Positions 1,995 to 9,071 of a stretch of 11,483 bases of DNA are shown in pieces. The position numbers and the translations under genes were made by a program. How positions within the stretch are numbered: the stretch's first letter is position 1; every line of letters starts with the position of its first letter. The stretch lies in IMG/VR virus record IMGVR_UViG_2690315922_000005; one strand, 5' to 3'. The DNA is from a virus (lineage: Duplodnaviria; Heunggongvirae; Uroviricota; Caudoviricetes). The notes below the pieces were generated by a model. It had not been told where the DNA came from and made no database searches. It saw only the letters and a program-made list of their open reading frames with translations.

Positions 1995-3073
1995 CAGAAC
2001 GGGTCCTCCTGTACTCTGGCTTTTTTCTTTTTCCGCGCGCCGGGGGCTTCGGGTTCAGGCAGATAAGCATCAGGCGGGCCGACACGGATTTCCGTCAGGG
2101 TGCCGTTCTGGTCCTGAGTAAACGTGACTTCCGAAACAAGCAGTTCGGTATTGTCGAAACCACAGACCGGATCAAAGACAATCACCCGCTGGTTGGGCTG
2201 CCACAGCGTACCGTTACCCTGTCGCCAGCCCTGCACCACATAGGTGGTTTCATCCGTCCGCGCCGCCCGTTGTCGGGCTTCAAAGTCCGCACGGGCAATA
2301 CAGCCTGCCCCCGTAGCCTGCCCTGTCTGCCTGATATACATCGGACGGTAACGGGCAATAAATGCGTCCTCTGTGCGGGCCCGCAGCGCGGTGGTGGTGG
2401 CCTCACCGAAATCATCGTCGTTTCCGGCACGCTGCCCCGCCACCTGGTAAACTGAAAACCGCTCCCGGATACTCTTCTCCGTATCGCAGGAAAGGATGTT
2501 TTCCCCGAGTACCAGCGCAGTATGTGCCCGCGTTGAGCCAATACCACCAATCACCAGCCTGCCGTGCGGGTCGTCGTAAGCCAGTGCCTGCTGCTGACCG
2601 AGTATTTTGTTGATTACCTCAATCACCGTTTCACCGTGATCGGGCTGGACGTCAGGAATAACACCCGACTGCGCACCGTTGTTCACCACCTCAATGCCGA
2701 AAGGCGCAGCAAGCGCCTGCGCAATCTGTACCAGCGATCGTCCGTTAAACTGTGTCGGTTCGGCTGCACAGTCAATCAGGTCAGCAGTCAGACTACGTCC
2801 GGCAATACCGGTGCTGACCGAACGGGCATCGTAACGAACGGGGGTCGCCTCCACCCAGCCGGTGATCACCAGCTCATCACCAATCAGCACTTCCACTTTT
2901 GAACCATTTTTAATGCGCGGCTGAAGCGTGGTGATACCCTCATCTCCCGGCCACTGGCGGGTGATCTCCACGCTGAAATCCCGCGCCAGCCGTTCAATAC
3001 CGGCACCGATGCGCACCGATGTCCAGCCATTCCACTCCCGGCCATTTACCCGTAGCGTGACATTGTCGTTCAT
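1994..3073 (-). CDS. Baseplate hub protein, Mu gpP-like (gp44; phage late control D family)
   Basis: 359-aa ORF (MNDNVTLRVNGREWNGWTSVRIGAGIERLARDF...) sitting between the gpN-like and gpV-like genes. Ends in a poly-lysine tail (KKKKARVQEDPF). Confidence 0.75.
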   Translation of the reverse strand: MNDNVTLRVNGREWNGWTSVRIGAGIERLARDFSVEITRQWPGDEGITTLQPRIKNGSKVEVLIGDELVITGWVEATPVRYDARSVSTGIAGRSLTADLIDCAAEPTQFNGRSLVQIAQALAAPFGIEVVNNGAQSGVIPDVQPDHGETVIEVINKILGQQQALAYDDPHGRLVIGGIGSTRAHTALVLGENILSCDTEKSIRERFSVYQVAGQRAGNDDDFGEATTTALRARTEDAFIARYRPMYIRQTGQATGAGCIARADFEARQRAARTDETTYVVQGWRQGNGTLWQPNQRVIVFDPVCGFDNTELLVSEVTFTQDQNGTLTEIRVGPPDAYLPEPEAPGARKKKKARVQEDPF

Positions 3074-4398
3074 TGCACTGGCACCTTCAGAGGGATCACC
3101 GGCACAAAGCCGGGATGCGTAATGGCATTACGCAGGATAATGTCCGCGTCACGCGCCGCGTTATCAAACCAGGTCGCCGCCAGCACCAGCGCGGGTAAAA
3201 CCTCATCCGGCGTGCGCTGAATGATCCGAGCAGACTGTTCAAGGCGCGTGTTGATATCCGCATTCAGATCTGCTTTCACCCGGCGCAGCGCCAGAAACAG
3301 CGCATCACTGGTTGTACGGGACAACTCCTTATCAATTGCCATATTCAGTGTGTCGCGAATGTCGGTCAGTTCTTCCCACGTTGGCAGGTCAACCGTGTTT
3401 TTCACCGCCGGTGCATTGTTCAGCACCGGATGCGTGACGGCAGGCCAGCCGGAGCTCTGCGCGGGTGTTGTTGACTGCCCCACTGCGGCATTCTGCATCA
3501 CCGCAGAAGTTGTTGGCGCAGGCAATCGGGTAACGGCATACGCCGCTTCGCTGATTGCGGTCGTACGAAGGGTGCTGGCAACCACGTTACGCTGCTGCGT
3601 CGCCGTGGCGGTGGTTTTACTGTCCGTTTTCCAGACGCCGCGCGGTTGCAGATCGCTGCCGAGGCTGACACCGGAAAGCGTTTTGATCATGGTGACCAGG
3701 TCGCTGGCGTTACCATAAAGGCGTTTCCCGGTACGCCACATTTTCTGCACCTGCTCAACGAAATTTTTGCCTGACGATGGCGGCGGCAGAAGTACCGAGA
3801 TATCCCCCTGCAACAGCCTGGCGGCATCCGATACGGCAGAATCCACCACTTTCATCGCATCAGAAACATACCCAAGCATTGTGCTGGCATTACCGACGAC
3901 ATCGTTCTGCACAAAATCTGCCACGCCATCGATACTGAAACTACTGAAACTGTCACTGATGCAGTCATCCAGTGCAGAACAGGATGACATCAGCGTCTGC
4001 GCCGTCGCCGCACCTGATGTGGGGTAAGAGAGTTCTCCCGCTTCGACAAACTTCAGGTCAAAGCGGACAATACGCCCTTCACTCTTCGATGTGCTGACCC
4101 GAAATTCTCCGTCAACACAGACTTTCAGCTCACCGTAAGTCGGATGGACAAGCGTGCCGGGACCGGGTTTATTCAGCGCGTCAATCAGGCGATCGCGCTG
4201 GTCAAAGCAGTCATCTCCCACCACATAAGCCGTGATGGACGGGCGGAAAGTGATTTTCCCCAGGTCTTCGGTATAGGGTTTGTCGCGGTTCGGGTATTCG
4301 TGCGTTTCCACACGACGGCCAGTTCCCGCACTTTCTTCTTCAACCTTAAACGGCACACCTCGAAATGACGCATCCTGAAGCCTGTCTTTCCACGTCAT
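3070..4398 (-). CDS. DNA circularization protein N-like tail protein (Mu gpN / gp43 family)
   Basis: 442-aa ORF (MTWKDRLQDASFRGVPFKVEEESAGTGRRVETHEYPNRDKPYTEDLG...). The conserved N-terminal region is recognisable. GGAG Shine-Dalgarno 5 nt upstream of the ATG. Confidence 0.75.
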   Translation of the reverse strand: MTWKDRLQDASFRGVPFKVEEESAGTGRRVETHEYPNRDKPYTEDLGKITFRPSITAYVVGDDCFDQRDRLIDALNKPGPGTLVHPTYGELKVCVDGEFRVSTSKSEGRIVRFDLKFVEAGELSYPTSGAATAQTLMSSCSALDDCISDSFSSFSIDGVADFVQNDVVGNASTMLGYVSDAMKVVDSAVSDAARLLQGDISVLLPPPSSGKNFVEQVQKMWRTGKRLYGNASDLVTMIKTLSGVSLGSDLQPRGVWKTDSKTTATATQQRNVVASTLRTTAISEAAYAVTRLPAPTTSAVMQNAAVGQSTTPAQSSGWPAVTHPVLNNAPAVKNTVDLPTWEELTDIRDTLNMAIDKELSRTTSDALFLALRRVKADLNADINTRLEQSARIIQRTPDEVLPALVLAATWFDNAARDADIILRNAITHPGFVPVIPLKVPVQ

Positions 4399-4408
4399 AT
4401 ATACTCCG

Positions 4409-4439
4409 AAAATTAAAAAGCCACCTATTAGAAGGTGGC
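4409..4439 (-). terminator. Rho-independent terminator downstream of the moron ORF
   Basis: Minus strand reads GCCACCT-TCTAAT-AGGTGGC (7-bp perfect stem, 6-nt loop) followed directly by TTTTTAATTTT. It lies 20 nt past the moron stop codon and ends about 10 nt before the gpN-like ATG. Confidence 0.75.
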
Positions 4440-4459
4440 CTTGTAATGAATTTTATTAA

Positions 4460-4990
4460 TTAGCGAGTCAGAAACAACGAATCTTTATACTTTTGCTGTT
4501 GTTCATTTAAATACTTAGCTGTTTCATCGCTGGCAAATGGAAATATTACCGTATTTTTAGGCATGGTAATTTCTTTTTTGTCCAGCGTCAGAGTAAACAT
4601 AGGAACATACTGAGCAGAGTAACGCACCGCAGAAACGAGCTCTAGTTTAGACTCTTCAACAACACTTAAATTATCCAGGCTAACTTTCTCTTCATCTTTT
4701 TTCTTTGACGCATTTAAAGTTTTTATTACTTTATTTAATTTCTCCTGAAAATCCTCCTTAAAGTTTTCAGGATTGCCGTCGACAACAAGAATCTGTTCAC
4801 CCTGATTATCTGGAAAAATAATCTTTGCACTTATCAATTTATTTTCTTTATAAACATCACCAAGTTTTATGGCTCCTCCAGATAACTGAATAATATGTTC
4901 ATCTTTAAAGGAGATGTTGCCAGAGATTATGAGAGATGAAAAAATAGCCGCTGCTCCAAGAATTACACTTGCTGTGATATAGCCTTTCAT
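4460..4990 (-). CDS. Moron-encoded hypothetical protein, 176 aa, with an N-terminal membrane anchor or signal sequence; lysine/glutamate-rich; family not recognised
   Basis: Intact ORF in an AT-rich island (about 30-35% G+C by eye against about 55-60% in flanking tail genes). The N-terminus MKGYITASVILGAAAIFSSLIISG is a roughly 20-residue hydrophobic segment after a basic residue; it has no cysteine, so it is not a lipoprotein. Has its own promoter and terminator. Confidence 0.8.
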   Translation of the reverse strand: MKGYITASVILGAAAIFSSLIISGNISFKDEHIIQLSGGAIKLGDVYKENKLISAKIIFPDNQGEQILVVDGNPENFKEDFQEKLNKVIKTLNASKKKDEEKVSLDNLSVVEESKLELVSAVRYSAQYVPMFTLTLDKKEITMPKNTVIFPFASDETAKYLNEQQQKYKDSLFLTR

Positions 4991-5025
4991 TTTTCGCCTA
5001 TTAACATTTTTCTAAATGTGCATTA

Positions 5026-5053
5026 ATTCTATCACTCTATTTATGACTTACAA
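5026..5053 (-). promoter_or_regulatory. Candidate sigma70 promoter for the moron gene
   Basis: Minus strand reads TTGTAA (-35, 5053-5048), a 16-nt spacer, then TAGAAT (-10, 5031-5026) preceded by TG-A (extended -10 like). About 35 nt upstream of the moron ATG at 4990, in the gap after the tape-measure stop. Confidence 0.5.
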
Positions 5054-5081
5054 CCAGCAATACCTGTGAGGGGAATCCTGG

Positions 5082-6914
5082 CTACCAAAATCGGGTATAG
5101 CCAACATCGTGATTTATATCAATGCCACTGGAGCGTGTTTCCGTAACCCGCATACCTGATGGCATATTTATAAATGATACCTTGATCTCACCATCAACTT
5201 TTGGCGCGGTAGCTTTATTAATCATGAAGGGATTCGGGCCTGTGGCACCGGAGGCGTTGTTTGCCTGAGCCGGATCCACCGCCGGATAAGGTGTGTATCC
5301 CCGCGCCGGTATTCCCGTCCCATAAGCATCATAAGCACCCGCGCCCCACTGCGCAGAGTTAATGGCATCGACCGTGTCACCGGAACTGTCGGTAAACCAC
5401 TCAATAATTGGCTTCAGCTTGTCCCACATATCCTGAAACCACTTAACAACCGGTCCCCAGTTATTGATCACCATCCCCAGCGGCGACCAGGCAAAAACCT
5501 TCTTCAGAAGTTCCCAACCTGCCTCAAAATAAGGACCAATGGTTTCCCAGAGCTTCTTGAAATAAGGTCCGACAACATCCCAGTTAGTGATAATTAATCC
5601 CGCAGCCAGAGCAATCGCCGTCGCAATCATGCCAATCGGCGTCATCGACATAATCCTGCTGACAATACTGATGGCACTGCCCACGCCCATCAATCCCAGT
5701 TTCAGAATCGCAAGACCGGCAGCAAGCCCGACGACGCCGCGAATAACCCGGGGATTTTCATCCGCAAACTTCGTGAATTTCTCCCCCAACTCCCCCAGCC
5801 ATTGTGTGATATTTTTAGCGTCACCAGAAAATGCGCCGCCAATAGCCGCAAGGCCGTTAGTTGCGGTCCCTGTCATTGCCTCCCACAGGTTGGACAGCGT
5901 ACCAAGCTGTGCCTGAACACGTTTATTCAGGCTGGCCTGTTTATGCATCTTCTGCTGGATCTGATCGTAGCCATCCTTTCCTTTATCGATTAGTGCATTG
6001 ACCACCTGAAGGGTTTCGGCATCATCACCAAATATTGCCTTAAGTACACCGGTTCGCTTAACGTCGGTCAGTTTTCGCAGCTTTGCCAGTTGCCTGAACA
6101 TGTTATCAAGACCGCCAAAACTTCCTTTGCCGTCAGTAAAATCGAGCTGTACCCCGAGTTTCTGGCGGGCCATAACTTTATTAACGTCCCTGATTTTCTT
6201 AACGCTTAATCCGGACTGGATAACTTTTCGCAGGGCATTACCTGCCGACTCCCCGTTCATCCCCATCTGATCCATCATGACGCTGATGGGGGCAAGGCTC
6301 TGTGCAGCCTGAAGACCATCCTTGTTCACCATCTTCAGAACAGAACTGGTTTTAGTGAAGAAGGACAACATGTTGGTATCGTCAACGCCCAGATAAAACG
6401 CCTTCTGGATAGTGTCGAACAGCCCCATCATGTCTTCTGACGCCGTTCCGGTAGCATCCTGCATCTTTGCAGCAAACTCGGCAGCCGCTTCCGGTGTTTT
6501 TTTCAGTTGTACCGCAAGATAAGCTGTCGCTTTACCCACACCACCCAGAATGTTTTCTGCCGGGATCCCCTGACGCACCAGCATCTGCATCATGTTCTGG
6601 AAATCAGCCGTTGTACCGGGTAGCTGGTTACCCAGGCCAATAGCCAGTTTATTGATGTCCTGAAAGCTCTTTCCAACCTCGCCGTTCGCATCCATCATGG
6701 CGACTTTCAGCCCGGTGGCGGCGTTTTCCTGATCGGCATAAGATTTCAGGGAAAGCGTCAGACCCGCTGCCAGTCCGCCCCCAAGCGCCAGCCCACCCTG
6801 TGACGCTTCTTCCGCCTGGCGTTTAAATCCCCGGATTTTCTTTTGCATTTTCGACAGCGCGGGAGAAAGCCTGTCGACACCGGTGATCAACGCCTTAAGC
6901 TCAAATTCAGCCAT
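5082..6914 (-). CDS. Tail tape measure protein
   Basis: 610-aa ORF, Ala/Gly/Leu-rich with an internal hydrophobic stretch. Immediately follows the chaperone pair, and its start overlaps the end of the frameshift-extension ORF, which is the canonical arrangement. Confidence 0.85.
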   Translation of the reverse strand: MAEFELKALITGVDRLSPALSKMQKKIRGFKRQAEEASQGGLALGGGLAAGLTLSLKSYADQENAATGLKVAMMDANGEVGKSFQDINKLAIGLGNQLPGTTADFQNMMQMLVRQGIPAENILGGVGKATAYLAVQLKKTPEAAAEFAAKMQDATGTASEDMMGLFDTIQKAFYLGVDDTNMLSFFTKTSSVLKMVNKDGLQAAQSLAPISVMMDQMGMNGESAGNALRKVIQSGLSVKKIRDVNKVMARQKLGVQLDFTDGKGSFGGLDNMFRQLAKLRKLTDVKRTGVLKAIFGDDAETLQVVNALIDKGKDGYDQIQQKMHKQASLNKRVQAQLGTLSNLWEAMTGTATNGLAAIGGAFSGDAKNITQWLGELGEKFTKFADENPRVIRGVVGLAAGLAILKLGLMGVGSAISIVSRIMSMTPIGMIATAIALAAGLIITNWDVVGPYFKKLWETIGPYFEAGWELLKKVFAWSPLGMVINNWGPVVKWFQDMWDKLKPIIEWFTDSSGDTVDAINSAQWGAGAYDAYGTGIPARGYTPYPAVDPAQANNASGATGPNPFMINKATAPKVDGEIKVSFINMPSGMRVTETRSSGIDINHDVGYTRFW

Positions 6915-7074
6915 GTGTGCGTTTCTCCTGCTCTATCCTGTTTGCCTGACTGACCAGTAAGGGAATTTCACTGATCGGCATATTCAGCAATTCGAAAGGA
7001 TTAATGCGCCAGTAGCTGGCGCAGTCAAAGAAGCGATCAGTGAGGTATTCAGCCGTCAGGCCTGGAGGAAAAAA
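6907..7074 (-). CDS. -1 frame extension of the tail assembly chaperone (gpGT-like fusion product, predicted programmed frameshift)
   Basis: The -1 frame ORF (track 6907..7089) overlaps the 3' end of the chaperone gene and stays open to a TGA at 6907, overlapping the tape measure start. The slip site T TTT TTC is at 7074-7068 on the minus strand. Confidence 0.5.
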   Translation of the reverse strand, partial: FFPPGLTAEYLTDRFFDCASYWRINPFELLNMPISEIPLLVSQANRIEQEKRTHG

Positions 7075-7325
7075 CCAGCCACAAGCCACGCCGCTGCATT
7101 CAGGTCTGCCGGAGACATCTGGTCGACAGAGCTTTGCGGCACTTTCGCCAGCCGCACAATGTATTTCGACACCACATGCGCCAGAAGTTTGACTGACTCA
7201 TCCTGATTCATCTGGTAGGGATACCCCAGCTCGCGGACATCCTTCCCGGTGGGCTCATCAAACTCCAGTACGGAGAGTGTCTCGCCATGAGCAGTAATCG
7301 GTTTCTTTAACTCAAGCTCTTTCAT
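7056..7325 (-). CDS. Tail assembly chaperone (Mu gp41-like; lambda gpG analogue)
   Basis: 89-aa ORF between the tube and tape measure genes. Ends ...GGT TTT TTC CTC CAG GCC TGA, containing the slippery heptamer T TTT TTC. Confidence 0.7.
   Translation of the reverse strand: MKELELKKPITAHGETLSVLEFDEPTGKDVRELGYPYQMNQDESVKLLAHVVSKYIVRLAKVPQSSVDQMSPADLNAAAWLVAGFFLQA
7068..7074 (-). promoter_or_regulatory. Slippery heptanucleotide U UUU UUC (X XXY YYZ) for -1 ribosomal frameshifting
   Basis: Plus strand is gaaaaaa at 7068-7074, so minus strand is TTTTTTC in the zero-frame register T TTT TTC, four codons before the chaperone stop. Confidence 0.5.
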
Positions 7326-7681
7326 TACTGGTAATCCCCTTCTTCACCGTGGAACTCAAGATCAACCGTGCCTTCTTCGGCATTATGGTTCGCTTCGCCG
7401 TGCAGCCAGGCAGACGACAGTACATAGACCTGACCGTTCGCCAGCTCGGCAGTGATAGTCATCTCATCAGACGAGGTGATTTTGTTCACCGGAAAATTCT
7501 TCGGCACCTTGAAAGTCCCTTTGACATAAGGCGCACGGTGAGTTTCCTTGCGGTCCACTGAACCGTCCAGGCCGATGATGTCATCATTGACCGTCCTGTT
7601 CATGGGCACCTCAATGCCGCCGGTCAGCGATAGCTGTTGACCGTCAATTTTGAAATAACAGGTTCCCCCGATACGGGCCAT
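7325..7681 (-). CDS. Tail tube protein (Mu gpM / gp40-like)
   Basis: 118-aa ORF directly after the sheath gene with a 1-nt start/stop overlap. The size and position are as expected for the tube protein of a contractile tail. Its stop overlaps the chaperone start (TAATG). Confidence 0.75.
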   Translation of the reverse strand: MARIGGTCYFKIDGQQLSLTGGIEVPMNRTVNDDIIGLDGSVDRKETHRAPYVKGTFKVPKNFPVNKITSSDEMTITAELANGQVYVLSSAWLHGEANHNAEEGTVDLEFHGEEGDYQ

Positions 7682-9071
7682 TATGCAGACTCCTCTGAAT
7701 ACTGAAGACGGAACTGGTTAACCACGGCAAAGACACGCAACTGGTTAACATAGTCAGGCGGGAACAGCGTGTTCAGGCGGTTCGGATCGCTGGCATCACG
7801 CTCCACAACCAGGTACTGCTTAAACAGTTCGTAGTTTTCCACGGTCCCCGCACGCTCAAGCTGACGGTAGGTTGCCAGCAGTTCCCCTTTGATCACCGCC
7901 GGTGTGACAATCGCCTGACCTGGACCAAAGCGGGTACCGTCGCTGGCAAGCTTGTGACGCCCGTACTTACTGGTAATGACGGATTTCAGTTTGCGCAGCA
8001 CATACGCGCTGGTATGCAGCGTCTCGCTGTCGAGGTAGCTGTTATCCGCAACACCGTAAGCGTTTTTCCTGTACGTGGTGACATCACGCTGAATGCGCAG
8101 CACCCCGCTTTCGACATACGCCGTTGCCACGCCATGAGACAGCAGGGTCTGTTGTTCGGTCATCGTGAACCGTTTCCCCTTCGGCGCAGGCAGCATACCC
8201 ACCAGCTCACCGGTCTGCGTGGGACGTGCCGGATCGTTGCGGATAAACACCGCTGCGCNNNNNNNNNNNNNNNNNNNNTTGCCGTATACACATGACCATA
8301 CAGCTGACGCGCATAGCTCCAGCGACCGCTGGTATCGTTCATCTCGGTCACCAGCGTGTTAACGGAGGCTGTGTCGTTGAACGGCAGGCCGATATAATCA
8401 AACGGCTCATCCGCCATTGCAGCCACCGCGCCGGTGAGAACAGGAGCGCCCGTTCCGGCGGTACCCGTCGCCACGGCAATCTGTACGCCCGCTGGCAGCA
8501 CTTCGCCCCCACCAAAGCCGTAGTAATTGAGGCTGACAGGAATTTCATTCCCGCAAAGCCCCTTATGACGCGCGGTCAGTGTGACCACGCCTGCCGAAGA
8601 TGAGGCAGTAAACGGCAGGGTCGGAACGGCATTGATGGCATCCTGGATACTGCTGGCAATCGTCGCAACGTTATCGCCGTTGGTCACCGGTGCCTGCACG
8701 CGGGTACGTCCCACATAAACATTCACCGTGCCGGTTTCGGTTGCCGCGCCGGTCACCGTCAGCGTAACCGTTGCCGCCGCGCCCGTGGATTCAGGAACGG
8801 CAATCACATACAGCTCGCCAAACGGGTCGGTCTGGCGATAAGCCTCGACCATACGCGCCAGCTGACTTCCCGCACCACAAATCTGGCGTGCATAGTCTGC
8901 CGACGGCATCAGTACCAGACTGTTGGCAACAATCTCTGCACCGTTATTGGCATGACCAATCAGCAGCGATGCTCCGCTGTCCTGTGCAGTATTCGCCGCC
9001 TGATTATCCATTTCCGCATAAAACAGCGGAACCAGCGTATTCGACGGAATGGTGTTAAAGCTTATCGTCAT
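7681..9071 (-). CDS. Tail sheath protein (Mu gpL / gp39-like), interrupted by an assembly gap
   Basis: Track ORF 8160..9071 gives the N-terminal roughly 264 aa up to the N run. Track ORF 7681..8250 is the C-terminal roughly 190 aa, and its frame stays open up to the gap, so its M is not a real start. The two halves are in different registers across the 20 N, so the gap length is unknown. Content and position are typical of a sheath. Confidence 0.8.
8259..8278. other. Assembly gap (20 N)
   Basis: Literal run of n characters in the sequence. Confidence 0.99.

Follow-up and report, generated by a model that had tools for sequence, protein, structure and literature searches.

The AT-rich segment between the tape measure gene and the gpN-like gene in the tail operon of the IMG/VR virus record IMGVR_UViG_2690315922_000005 is most probably (approximately 0.9) an accessory cassette of the moron type, situated in a recombinational hotspot. 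The cargo of the cassette, a single gene for a protein of 176 amino acids (aa), was tentatively assigned, at a probability of approximately 0.4 and mainly by analogy, a function in superinfection exclusion at the level of the cell envelope. The DNA analysed (the window), 11,483 nucleotides (nt) long, covers part of the late genes of a prophage and has every gene on the minus strand; the host element is an SfV-like E. coli prophage that combines a Mu-like tail with lambdoid regulation. The cassette and its two flanks contain the following features:

4423-5081, minus strand: variable AT-rich cassette (moron) of ~660 bases, bounded by the tape measure stop codon and by the 3′ side of the terminator stem.
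4460-4990, minus strand: cargo open reading frame (ORF) of 176 aa with an ATG start, the sole ORF in the cassette and a member of phrog_5485.
5026-5053, minus strand: sigma-70-like promoter candidate, TTGTAA (5053-5048), a 16-nt spacer and TGaTAGAAT (5034-5026) with an extended -10 TG.
4411-4447, minus strand: intrinsic terminator made up of a 10-bp G+C-rich stem (4442-4417), a loop of 6 nt and a T-run; 12 nt separate its end from the gpN start codon.
5082-6914, minus strand: tape measure gene, the upstream flank (PF10145, E 1e-26).
3070-4398, minus strand: gpN-like DNA-circulation (baseplate) gene, the downstream flank (PF07157, DNA_circ_N, E 6e-34).

A megablast search of positions 3900-5600 against GenBank phages returned the Shigella/E. 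coli SfI, SfII and SfV group, which matches both flanks of the cassette at 93-96 % identity and spans 1079 bp where the window spans 1701 bp. The flanks of the gene-less relatives (SfI, SfII, SfV and E. coli) are 93-97 % identical to those of the window, and at such empty junctions the tape measure and gpN genes are separated by about 20-60 nt without an ORF between them; in SfII an annotated terminator lies 18 nt after the tape measure stop codon and is followed by gpN. The original prediction had proposed an alignment with related prophages in which the island would be missing, and it is indeed absent from these three phages and from many E. coli relatives. In phage SKA5 the span is equal to that of the window, but the slot is occupied by an unrelated ORF of 170 aa (phrog_8976). 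Pairwise BLAST comparisons with SfII, SKA5 and the variants encoding a PH-domain protein, an OB-fold protein or a lipoprotein demonstrated that homology stops at 5082-5088 and restarts at 4422-4425, or at 4401 in the case of the OB-fold variant. The boundaries of the cassette are sharp and correspond to the tape measure stop codon on one side and to the 3′ end of the terminator stem with the T-run on the other.

The tape measure/gpN junction was found in 1094 of 5426 complete E. coli genomes (about 20 %). In a spread sample of 60 junction records about half were empty (the 1079-bp configuration), and the others had either an insert, of which there were several kinds, or another tape measure gene, with only the gpN end matching. 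The cargo of the window is present in 179 E. coli genomes, from animals, humans and wastewater, and 174 of the 181 matching records show at least 99 % identity. The SKA5-type ORF of 170 aa (phrog_8976), which has a Sec-type signal peptide, was found in 85 genomes, a tRNA_anti-like OB-fold gene on the opposite strand in 72, a predicted lipoprotein of 225 aa with an LLGGC lipobox in 55 and a bPH_1 bacterial PH-domain protein in 28. All five cargos have a G+C content of 31-42 %. The junction, as seen in the window (4399-5081) and at loci L001, L009, L010, L011 and L012, is a multi-cargo accessory hotspot that holds at least five unrelated AT-rich cargos or none, the present gene being the commonest of them. 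The view of the segment as an inserted moron, put forward in the original prediction, was supported by its absence from close relatives, but the insert is neither a recent one-off event nor the only insertion at this site. No PADLOC defence model matched the window protein, three distant family members or the alternative cargos. A limited search of the literature returned no description of the slot, the cassette or WP_001560827 (WP_001560827.1 being identical or nearly so to the product of the cargo ORF).

The base composition of the cassette sets it apart from its surroundings. The G+C content of 4423-5081 is 0.343 in comparison to 0.560 ± 0.028 in segments of the same size elsewhere in the window (z = -7.9), the lowest of which reaches 0.489. 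In the profile the G+C content falls at the junction from about 0.56 to 0.30-0.37, and values remain low (0.38-0.43) over roughly the last 120 nt of the tape measure gene. The G+C content at third codon positions (GC3) is 0.30 in the cargo ORF, which has AGG 6 nt upstream of its start codon, versus 0.56-0.64 in nine neighbouring tail genes. The strikingly AT-rich character of the insert, its location in a Mu-like tail operon between tape measure and gpN-like genes (confirmed by the Pfam matches), its one ORF at 4460-4990 and its strongly deviant sliding G+C and codon-usage profile are all in agreement with what had been expected. An Rfam scan of the whole window found no RNA family.

The transcription signals were less uniform. 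The promoter candidate scores 9/12 against the consensus, and since the promoter-like sites in 4200-5400 (2 observed) are no more numerous than in shuffled sequences (2.8 ± 1.8), it is a consensus match without statistical support. Good promoter-like sites are present in three to four homologous cassettes, those of loci L020 (TTGTCA-16-TATAAT), L008 and L031 (TGTTATAAT) among them, and from such matches independent transcription of the cargo gene seems plausible. The terminator hairpin folds at -17 kcal/mol in comparison to -4.45 ± 1.84 for shuffled sequences (z = -6.8). A hairpin with a T-run just before the gpN ribosome-binding site was found in all five aligned homologous cassettes and also in L026; the stems in homologous cassettes differ in sequence (GCCACC, CCCGCC, GCTCACC) while keeping the same position, which argues that the terminator structure is maintained. 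Since at the empty SfII junction (L002, 2007-2045) the same T-run and gpN ribosome-binding site are likewise preceded by a terminator hairpin, the terminator is a standing feature of the junction, with or without cargo, and each cassette brings its own stem. The promoter and the strong terminator ascribed to the cassette in the original prediction were both found in place, but the former is not distinguished from chance by the number of sites and the latter is in part a property of the junction itself.

An antitermination protein is annotated in the near-identical prophage of strain WP5-S17-ESBL-11 and in NZ_CP081716.1, a record considered below, and Q-modified polymerase reads through such terminators. 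The late genes of the SfV-type phage group are under Q antitermination (PMC3851460). Such antitermination would allow the terminator to be tolerated inside the late operon, so that the expression of gpN and of the baseplate genes would not be blocked. When set against the definition of a moron given by Hendrix and Juhala, the cassette is extra DNA between genes that are adjacent in relatives, it has a deviant base composition and it is equipped with a terminator of its own, although a hairpin precedes the shared T-run at empty sites too. The element itself is a textbook moron, and in this respect the first interpretation stands.

The protein encoded by the cargo ORF matches phrog_5485, a family without functional annotation, over its full length (residues 1-176 of 176, E 6.2e-108), and the same family was matched by all 57 aligned relatives. 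The window protein has no match in Pfam (E <= 1), NCBIfam or PADLOC and no relative in the PDB, profile searches of PDB sequences included; it could not be placed in any family when it was first noticed, and these searches led to the same result. A Pfam scan of the 57 relatives revealed no recurring family. No match was obtained by tblastn against 50,697 GenBank phage records, and since phrog_5485 does match, PHROGs must hold close relatives that are absent from the GenBank phage set; our guess is that they come from a prophage-derived source. A word-indexed protein search returned only E. coli copies and proteins of 52-59 % identity from Leclercia, Lelliottia and metagenomes. The database copies are mostly full length and form a cluster of 524 members; with a profile searched exhaustively against 1.8 billion representative proteins, the family grew to 78 clusters at E <= 0.001, whose full-length members (166-250 aa) have one architecture.

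The ratio of nonsynonymous to synonymous substitution rates (dN/dS) was about 0.08 by the Nei-Gojobori method for Leclercia-type alleles, the sole pair unsaturated at synonymous sites; in the remaining pairs the proportion of nonsynonymous differences (pN) was 0.2-0.3 versus 0.75-0.9 for synonymous ones (pS). These comparisons indicate that the cargo is a functional coding gene under purifying selection. Some truncated database entries could suggest that the ORF is a decaying, non-functional passenger or is spurious, but this explanation is effectively refuted by the data on selection and conservation: the low dN/dS, the 78 clusters of one architecture, the near identity of almost all E. coli records and the confident fold of the AlphaFold model (predicted local distance difference test score, pLDDT, of 92). 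At least one of the truncated copies stems from an assembly with many errors, where frameshifts affect most of the phage genes.

The record NZ_CP081716.1 (L032), a circular "plasmid" of 37,667 bp from E. coli CX04, contains a whole SfV-like phage genome with the cassette and gives the impression of a phage genome that had been excised, had circularised and was taken for a plasmid in the assembly; the strain also has a chromosomal copy (NZ_CP081713.1). The annotation marks most genes of NZ_CP081716.1 as frameshifted. This points to assembly errors, which would account for the truncated 104-aa version of the cargo and perhaps for phrog_34391.

The family alignment revealed the motif G-x-[VI]-[KR]-L-G-x-V-Y-x-E, the invariant residues G44 and Y124 and the nearly invariant G39, L43, E49 and L134. 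No conserved residues suggestive of catalysis were seen in this alignment, and the window protein has no Cys, no Trp and one His, so a binding role seems likelier than an enzymatic one. As it has no cysteine for a lipobox, it is not a lipoprotein. Two parts were distinguished in the product:

4922-4987, minus strand: N-terminal hydrophobic helix, codons 2-23, a predicted signal-anchor with the N-terminus in (hydropathy and AlphaFold).
4463-4903, minus strand: predicted periplasmic alpha/beta domain, codons 30-176 (~150 residues), with the family motif, G44 and Y124.

The best 19-residue Kyte-Doolittle window, at residue 5, scores 2.1, and the AlphaFold model places a helix over residues 2-23. 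The N-side of the hydrophobic helix is more positive than the C-side in 54 of 57 family members, and this positive-inside bias, together with the helix, predicts a cytoplasmic N-terminus and a periplasmic C-terminus. The cargo product is accordingly modelled as a single-pass inner-membrane protein with a folded periplasmic domain, the predicted fold having no solved relative.

A Foldseek search against BFVD returned one significant match, a "Lipoprotein" of 144 aa from Pseudomonas phage ventosus (E 7e-7, probability 1.0, TM-score 0.66). The gene for it is CNR37_00111 of MG018930, the genome of a 97-kb Pseudomonas syringae phage; CNR37_00078 was considered in its place and rejected. The CNR37_00111 product starts with MKRLLFLGITALLLTGC, which provides an LLLTGC lipobox; the segment that comes next, KDTIIHTRSAVVNVGEVTAEG, can be aligned with the family motif. 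The same domain thus appears to be tethered by a lipid in ventosus and by a transmembrane helix in the other members, and tethering to the membrane in two ways supports an extracytoplasmic, membrane-proximal site of action. Judging from its gene content and family, phage ventosus is probably lytic.

The distribution of the family was followed in other elements. Leclercia and Lelliottia-type prophages, Edwardsiella anguillarum (L031) and a more distant phage (L026) all have a member between the tape measure and DNA_circ_N genes of a Mu-like tail. The two cassettes profiled, Leclercia L004 and Edwardsiella L031, are also AT-rich, with a G+C content of 0.33-0.40 versus 0.47-0.57 in the flanks. 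The identities to the window proteins were as follows:

Leclercia types (L004, L017): gpN 68-71 %, cargo 53-54 %.
Edwardsiella (L031): gpN 67 %, cargo 41 %.
Distant phage (L026): gpN 44 %, cargo 30 %.

In these comparisons the divergence of the cargo tracks that of the tail module, with the cargo evolving faster than the baseplate. The gene is accordingly an old resident of the slot, still AT-rich, and no recent arrival in E. coli.

Family members also occur in other surroundings. In an unrelated myovirus a relative of 30 % identity lies in an AT-rich patch between a baseplate-hub gene and a gpV-like spike gene, and in a lambdoid prophage (L028, 1-3796) a relative of 33 % identity lies directly downstream of a Q-type antiterminator. 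Relatives of 23 % identity are carried by integrative islands with serine recombinases, an Mrr-like nuclease (in one of the recombinase-bearing islands of Pseudomonas type) or an integrase and a protein with DUF5906, which we take to be a domain associated with P4-type primases. Members of the family were found only in phages and mobile elements, one apparently lytic phage included, and the spread of the family over differing slots and elements argues for a portable accessory cargo and not a tail component.

The possibility that the product is a structural or assembly component of the tail or baseplate in a subset of phages would agree with its position between tape measure and baseplate genes, kept across several genera. 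It is nevertheless very unlikely, as the gene is missing from viable close relatives whose flanking tail proteins are about 95 % identical, its composition is strongly foreign, its product has a predicted N-terminal membrane anchor, a terminator follows it and its relatives are also found outside tail modules.

Two of these loci have further content of note. In L028 a Ser/Thr protein kinase, which seems to be divided between two ORFs, and a PP2C phosphatase are encoded after the family member; comparable prophage kinases such as Stk of 933W mediate phage exclusion. In L013 (1-12534) the Pseudomonas-type homologue is part of an island of ~11 kb which apparently splits an FKBP-type gene, FKBP_C fragments being present at both ends, and which encodes a large serine recombinase, a small resolvase and an Mrr-family nuclease. 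A gene of 180 aa just upstream of this homologue has no Pfam or PADLOC match, and its candidacy as a paralogue was rejected (hhalign probability 0.6 %).

The arrangement was compared with known systems. Gp15 of HK97, the founding moron beside a tape measure gene, is a small inner-membrane protein produced from the prophage that blocks DNA entry in a manner dependent on the tail region of the incoming phage (Juhala 2000; Cumby 2012; reviewed in PMC3594210). Like gp15, the present gene lies right next to a tape measure gene as a single AT-shifted insertion in a late operon under Q antitermination, is missing from close relatives and encodes a small protein, here predicted to cross the inner membrane once. 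The gp15 gene has a promoter and a terminator of its own, and the present gene has a terminator and a promoter candidate. There is, however, no sequence relationship between the two, gp15 being reported as YebO-like and the window protein having no Pfam match. Moreover, the gp15 gene precedes the tape measure gene in a siphovirus, and the present gene follows it in a phage with a contractile tail; by prediction the window protein also carries a large folded domain in the periplasm. The function of gp15 has been demonstrated, whereas the role of the window protein in exclusion is putative.

T4 Imm, P22 SieA, T5 Llp, phi80/N15 Cor and TP-J34 Ltp are likewise phage-encoded, membrane-tethered envelope proteins, which act at DNA entry or at the receptor. 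The resemblance to the lipoprotein excluders is extended by the lipoprotein-anchored family member in the apparently lytic phage ventosus, but no homology to any of these proteins was detected in Pfam, NCBIfam or the PDB, and the window protein, unlike the lipoproteins Llp, Cor and Ltp, has no cysteine. SNIPE, Tab and Tai were also considered and rejected as relatives since they differ in size, location and architecture, with no homology indicated. As regards the slot, it resembles the hotspots of P2 and P4 (Rousset 2022; PMC13586616) in its fixed position between core genes, its sharp boundaries and its exchangeable AT-rich cargos or empty state. It differs from them in the phage group and location (the tape measure/gpN junction of SfV-like phages) and in that none of its five cargos has a PADLOC match.

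In the mechanism proposed for exclusion, the cargo would be transcribed from its own promoter in the lysogen and would also be made from the Q-antiterminated late transcript, which would read through the cassette terminator. The protein would reside in the inner membrane with its periplasmic domain outward and would block an envelope step of an incoming phage, likely after adsorption, at penetration of the tail tip and tape measure or at DNA entry, much as HK97 gp15, T4 Imm or P22 SieA do. The homologue in an apparently lytic phage was taken to argue for a role in phage infection or in conflict between phages, and not in virulence of the host.

Several observations weigh against an exclusion function. 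Known exclusion or defence proteins in Pfam, PADLOC, NCBIfam and the PDB show no similarity to the window protein, and an envelope anchor is compatible with many other functions. Promoter-like sites are only weak in the homologous cassettes L004, L017 and L019; the Edwardsiella cassette L031 has no terminator hairpin after the gene, and the relative in the unrelated myovirus overlaps the downstream spike gene by 4 nt, so that in these two cases the gene may be expressed only with the late genes. Finally, that the gene recurs next to tail-tip genes could point to a function in the infection cycle of the phage itself.

Such a role in the lytic cycle, with the protein produced mainly from the late transcript, could consist in control of lysis timing in the manner of an antiholin or T4 RI, or in conditioning of the envelope for tail penetration or progeny release. 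The explanation is considered unlikely, and yet the persistent tail-tip placement and the weak promoters of several relatives make it deserving of respect. The gene has the orientation of the late operon inside the tail genes, the same junction is kept while protein identity decreases from about 59 % to 30 %, the 4-nt overlap in the other myovirus suggests translational coupling, and a homologue is present in an apparently lytic phage. The anchor segment of the window protein, moreover, is 53 % Gly/Ala/Ser/Thr and is reminiscent of signal-anchor-release domains. On the other hand, the gene is dispensable, being absent from the plaque-forming phages SfI, SfII and SfV and from about half of the sampled E. 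coli junctions. Family members are also located in a post-Q early/moron slot and in islands without tail or lysis genes, and the same site is taken by unrelated cargos of quite different predicted location.

The moron layout and the predicted envelope location would also agree with lysogenic conversion that benefits the host in ways not related to phages, such as immunity to bacteriocins or type VI secretion system (T6SS) effectors, tolerance to envelope stress or colonisation. Small membrane-anchored periplasmic proteins are a typical form of immunity proteins, the gene occurs widely in E. coli of animal, human and wastewater origin, and its distant relatives reside in non-phage integrative islands. 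The probability of this explanation was judged to be low, and the argument drawn from the ventosus homologue is directed to phage infection or conflict.

The rest of the window is a complete Mu-like operon for tail and baseplate, in which Pfam identified genes for a head completion protein, tail terminator, tube, assembly chaperone, tape measure, DNA_circ_N/gpN, gpP, gp45 and gp46. The counterpart of the gpN gene in phage SKA5 is annotated as Mup43/N-like. The C-terminal residues of the tape measure protein vary with the cassette variant (RFW*, RFR*, RFGR*, HIGR*, RFGMGG*), and only the final 1-4 codons of the gene are cassette-specific. A link between the present cargo and the divergence of the tape measure gene at its 3′ end was considered and rejected, since the OB-fold variant has the same variant residues. 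An ORF of 60 aa in a different frame (6907-7089, minus strand) overlaps the end of the tail assembly chaperone gene (7056-7325) and bridges the gap to the tape measure gene; an overlapping out-of-frame ORF before the tape measure gene is the usual layout of a programmed-frameshift chaperone pair.

The tail sheath gene (7681-9071, minus strand) is broken at 8259-8278, where in comparison to SfII 126 bp are replaced by 20 unrelated bases. The net loss of 106 bp removes residues 265-307 and shifts the frame, leaving two overlapping ORFs, 8160-9071 and 7681-8250. With a query of 351 bases, the deletion was found in none of the best 12 of 1088 matching E. coli records, all of which span the undeleted length (457 bp) and leave the 20 replaced bases unmatched. 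The sheath gene is also intact (1497 bp) in the near-identical prophage of strain WP5-S17-ESBL-11. Since the gene is broken in the window and intact in the relatives compared, the prophage is probably defective for tail production or the sequence contains an assembly error.

In the same WP5-S17-ESBL-11 prophage (L024, 12828-13895) an acyltransferase family gene is situated beyond the tail-fibre genes, in the part outside the window, with an IS1 element and an ImmA/IrrE-HTH (helix-turn-helix) pair nearby. By analogy it might be an O-antigen-modifying gene for serotype conversion, a known feature of Shigella phages of the SfV group (PMC3851460).

What is new in this analysis is the comparative proof of the moron, the recognition of the junction as a multi-cargo hotspot and a cargo family with a confident fold that lacks a solved relative. 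A more far-reaching proposal, namely that phrog_5485 is a new fold class of membrane-tethered periplasmic exclusion proteins directed against the tail tip or tape measure and that the junction is an undescribed hotspot whose five or more cargos are all phage-conflict genes, is possible but rather doubtful. Morons in tail operons are a classic source of prophage functions in exclusion, defence and virulence, and this cassette is a tractable one: a single gene of 176 aa with sharp boundaries, natural alleles that are empty or hold alternative cargos and so approach isogenic comparison, and a confident structural model. If the proposed block of phage entry is false, the cassette would be an ordinary moron of unknown function. 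If it is true, the family would provide a new fold, and possibly a new target, for exclusion at the level of the envelope, and the slot would be a place to seek further single-gene functions of phage conflict in E. coli.

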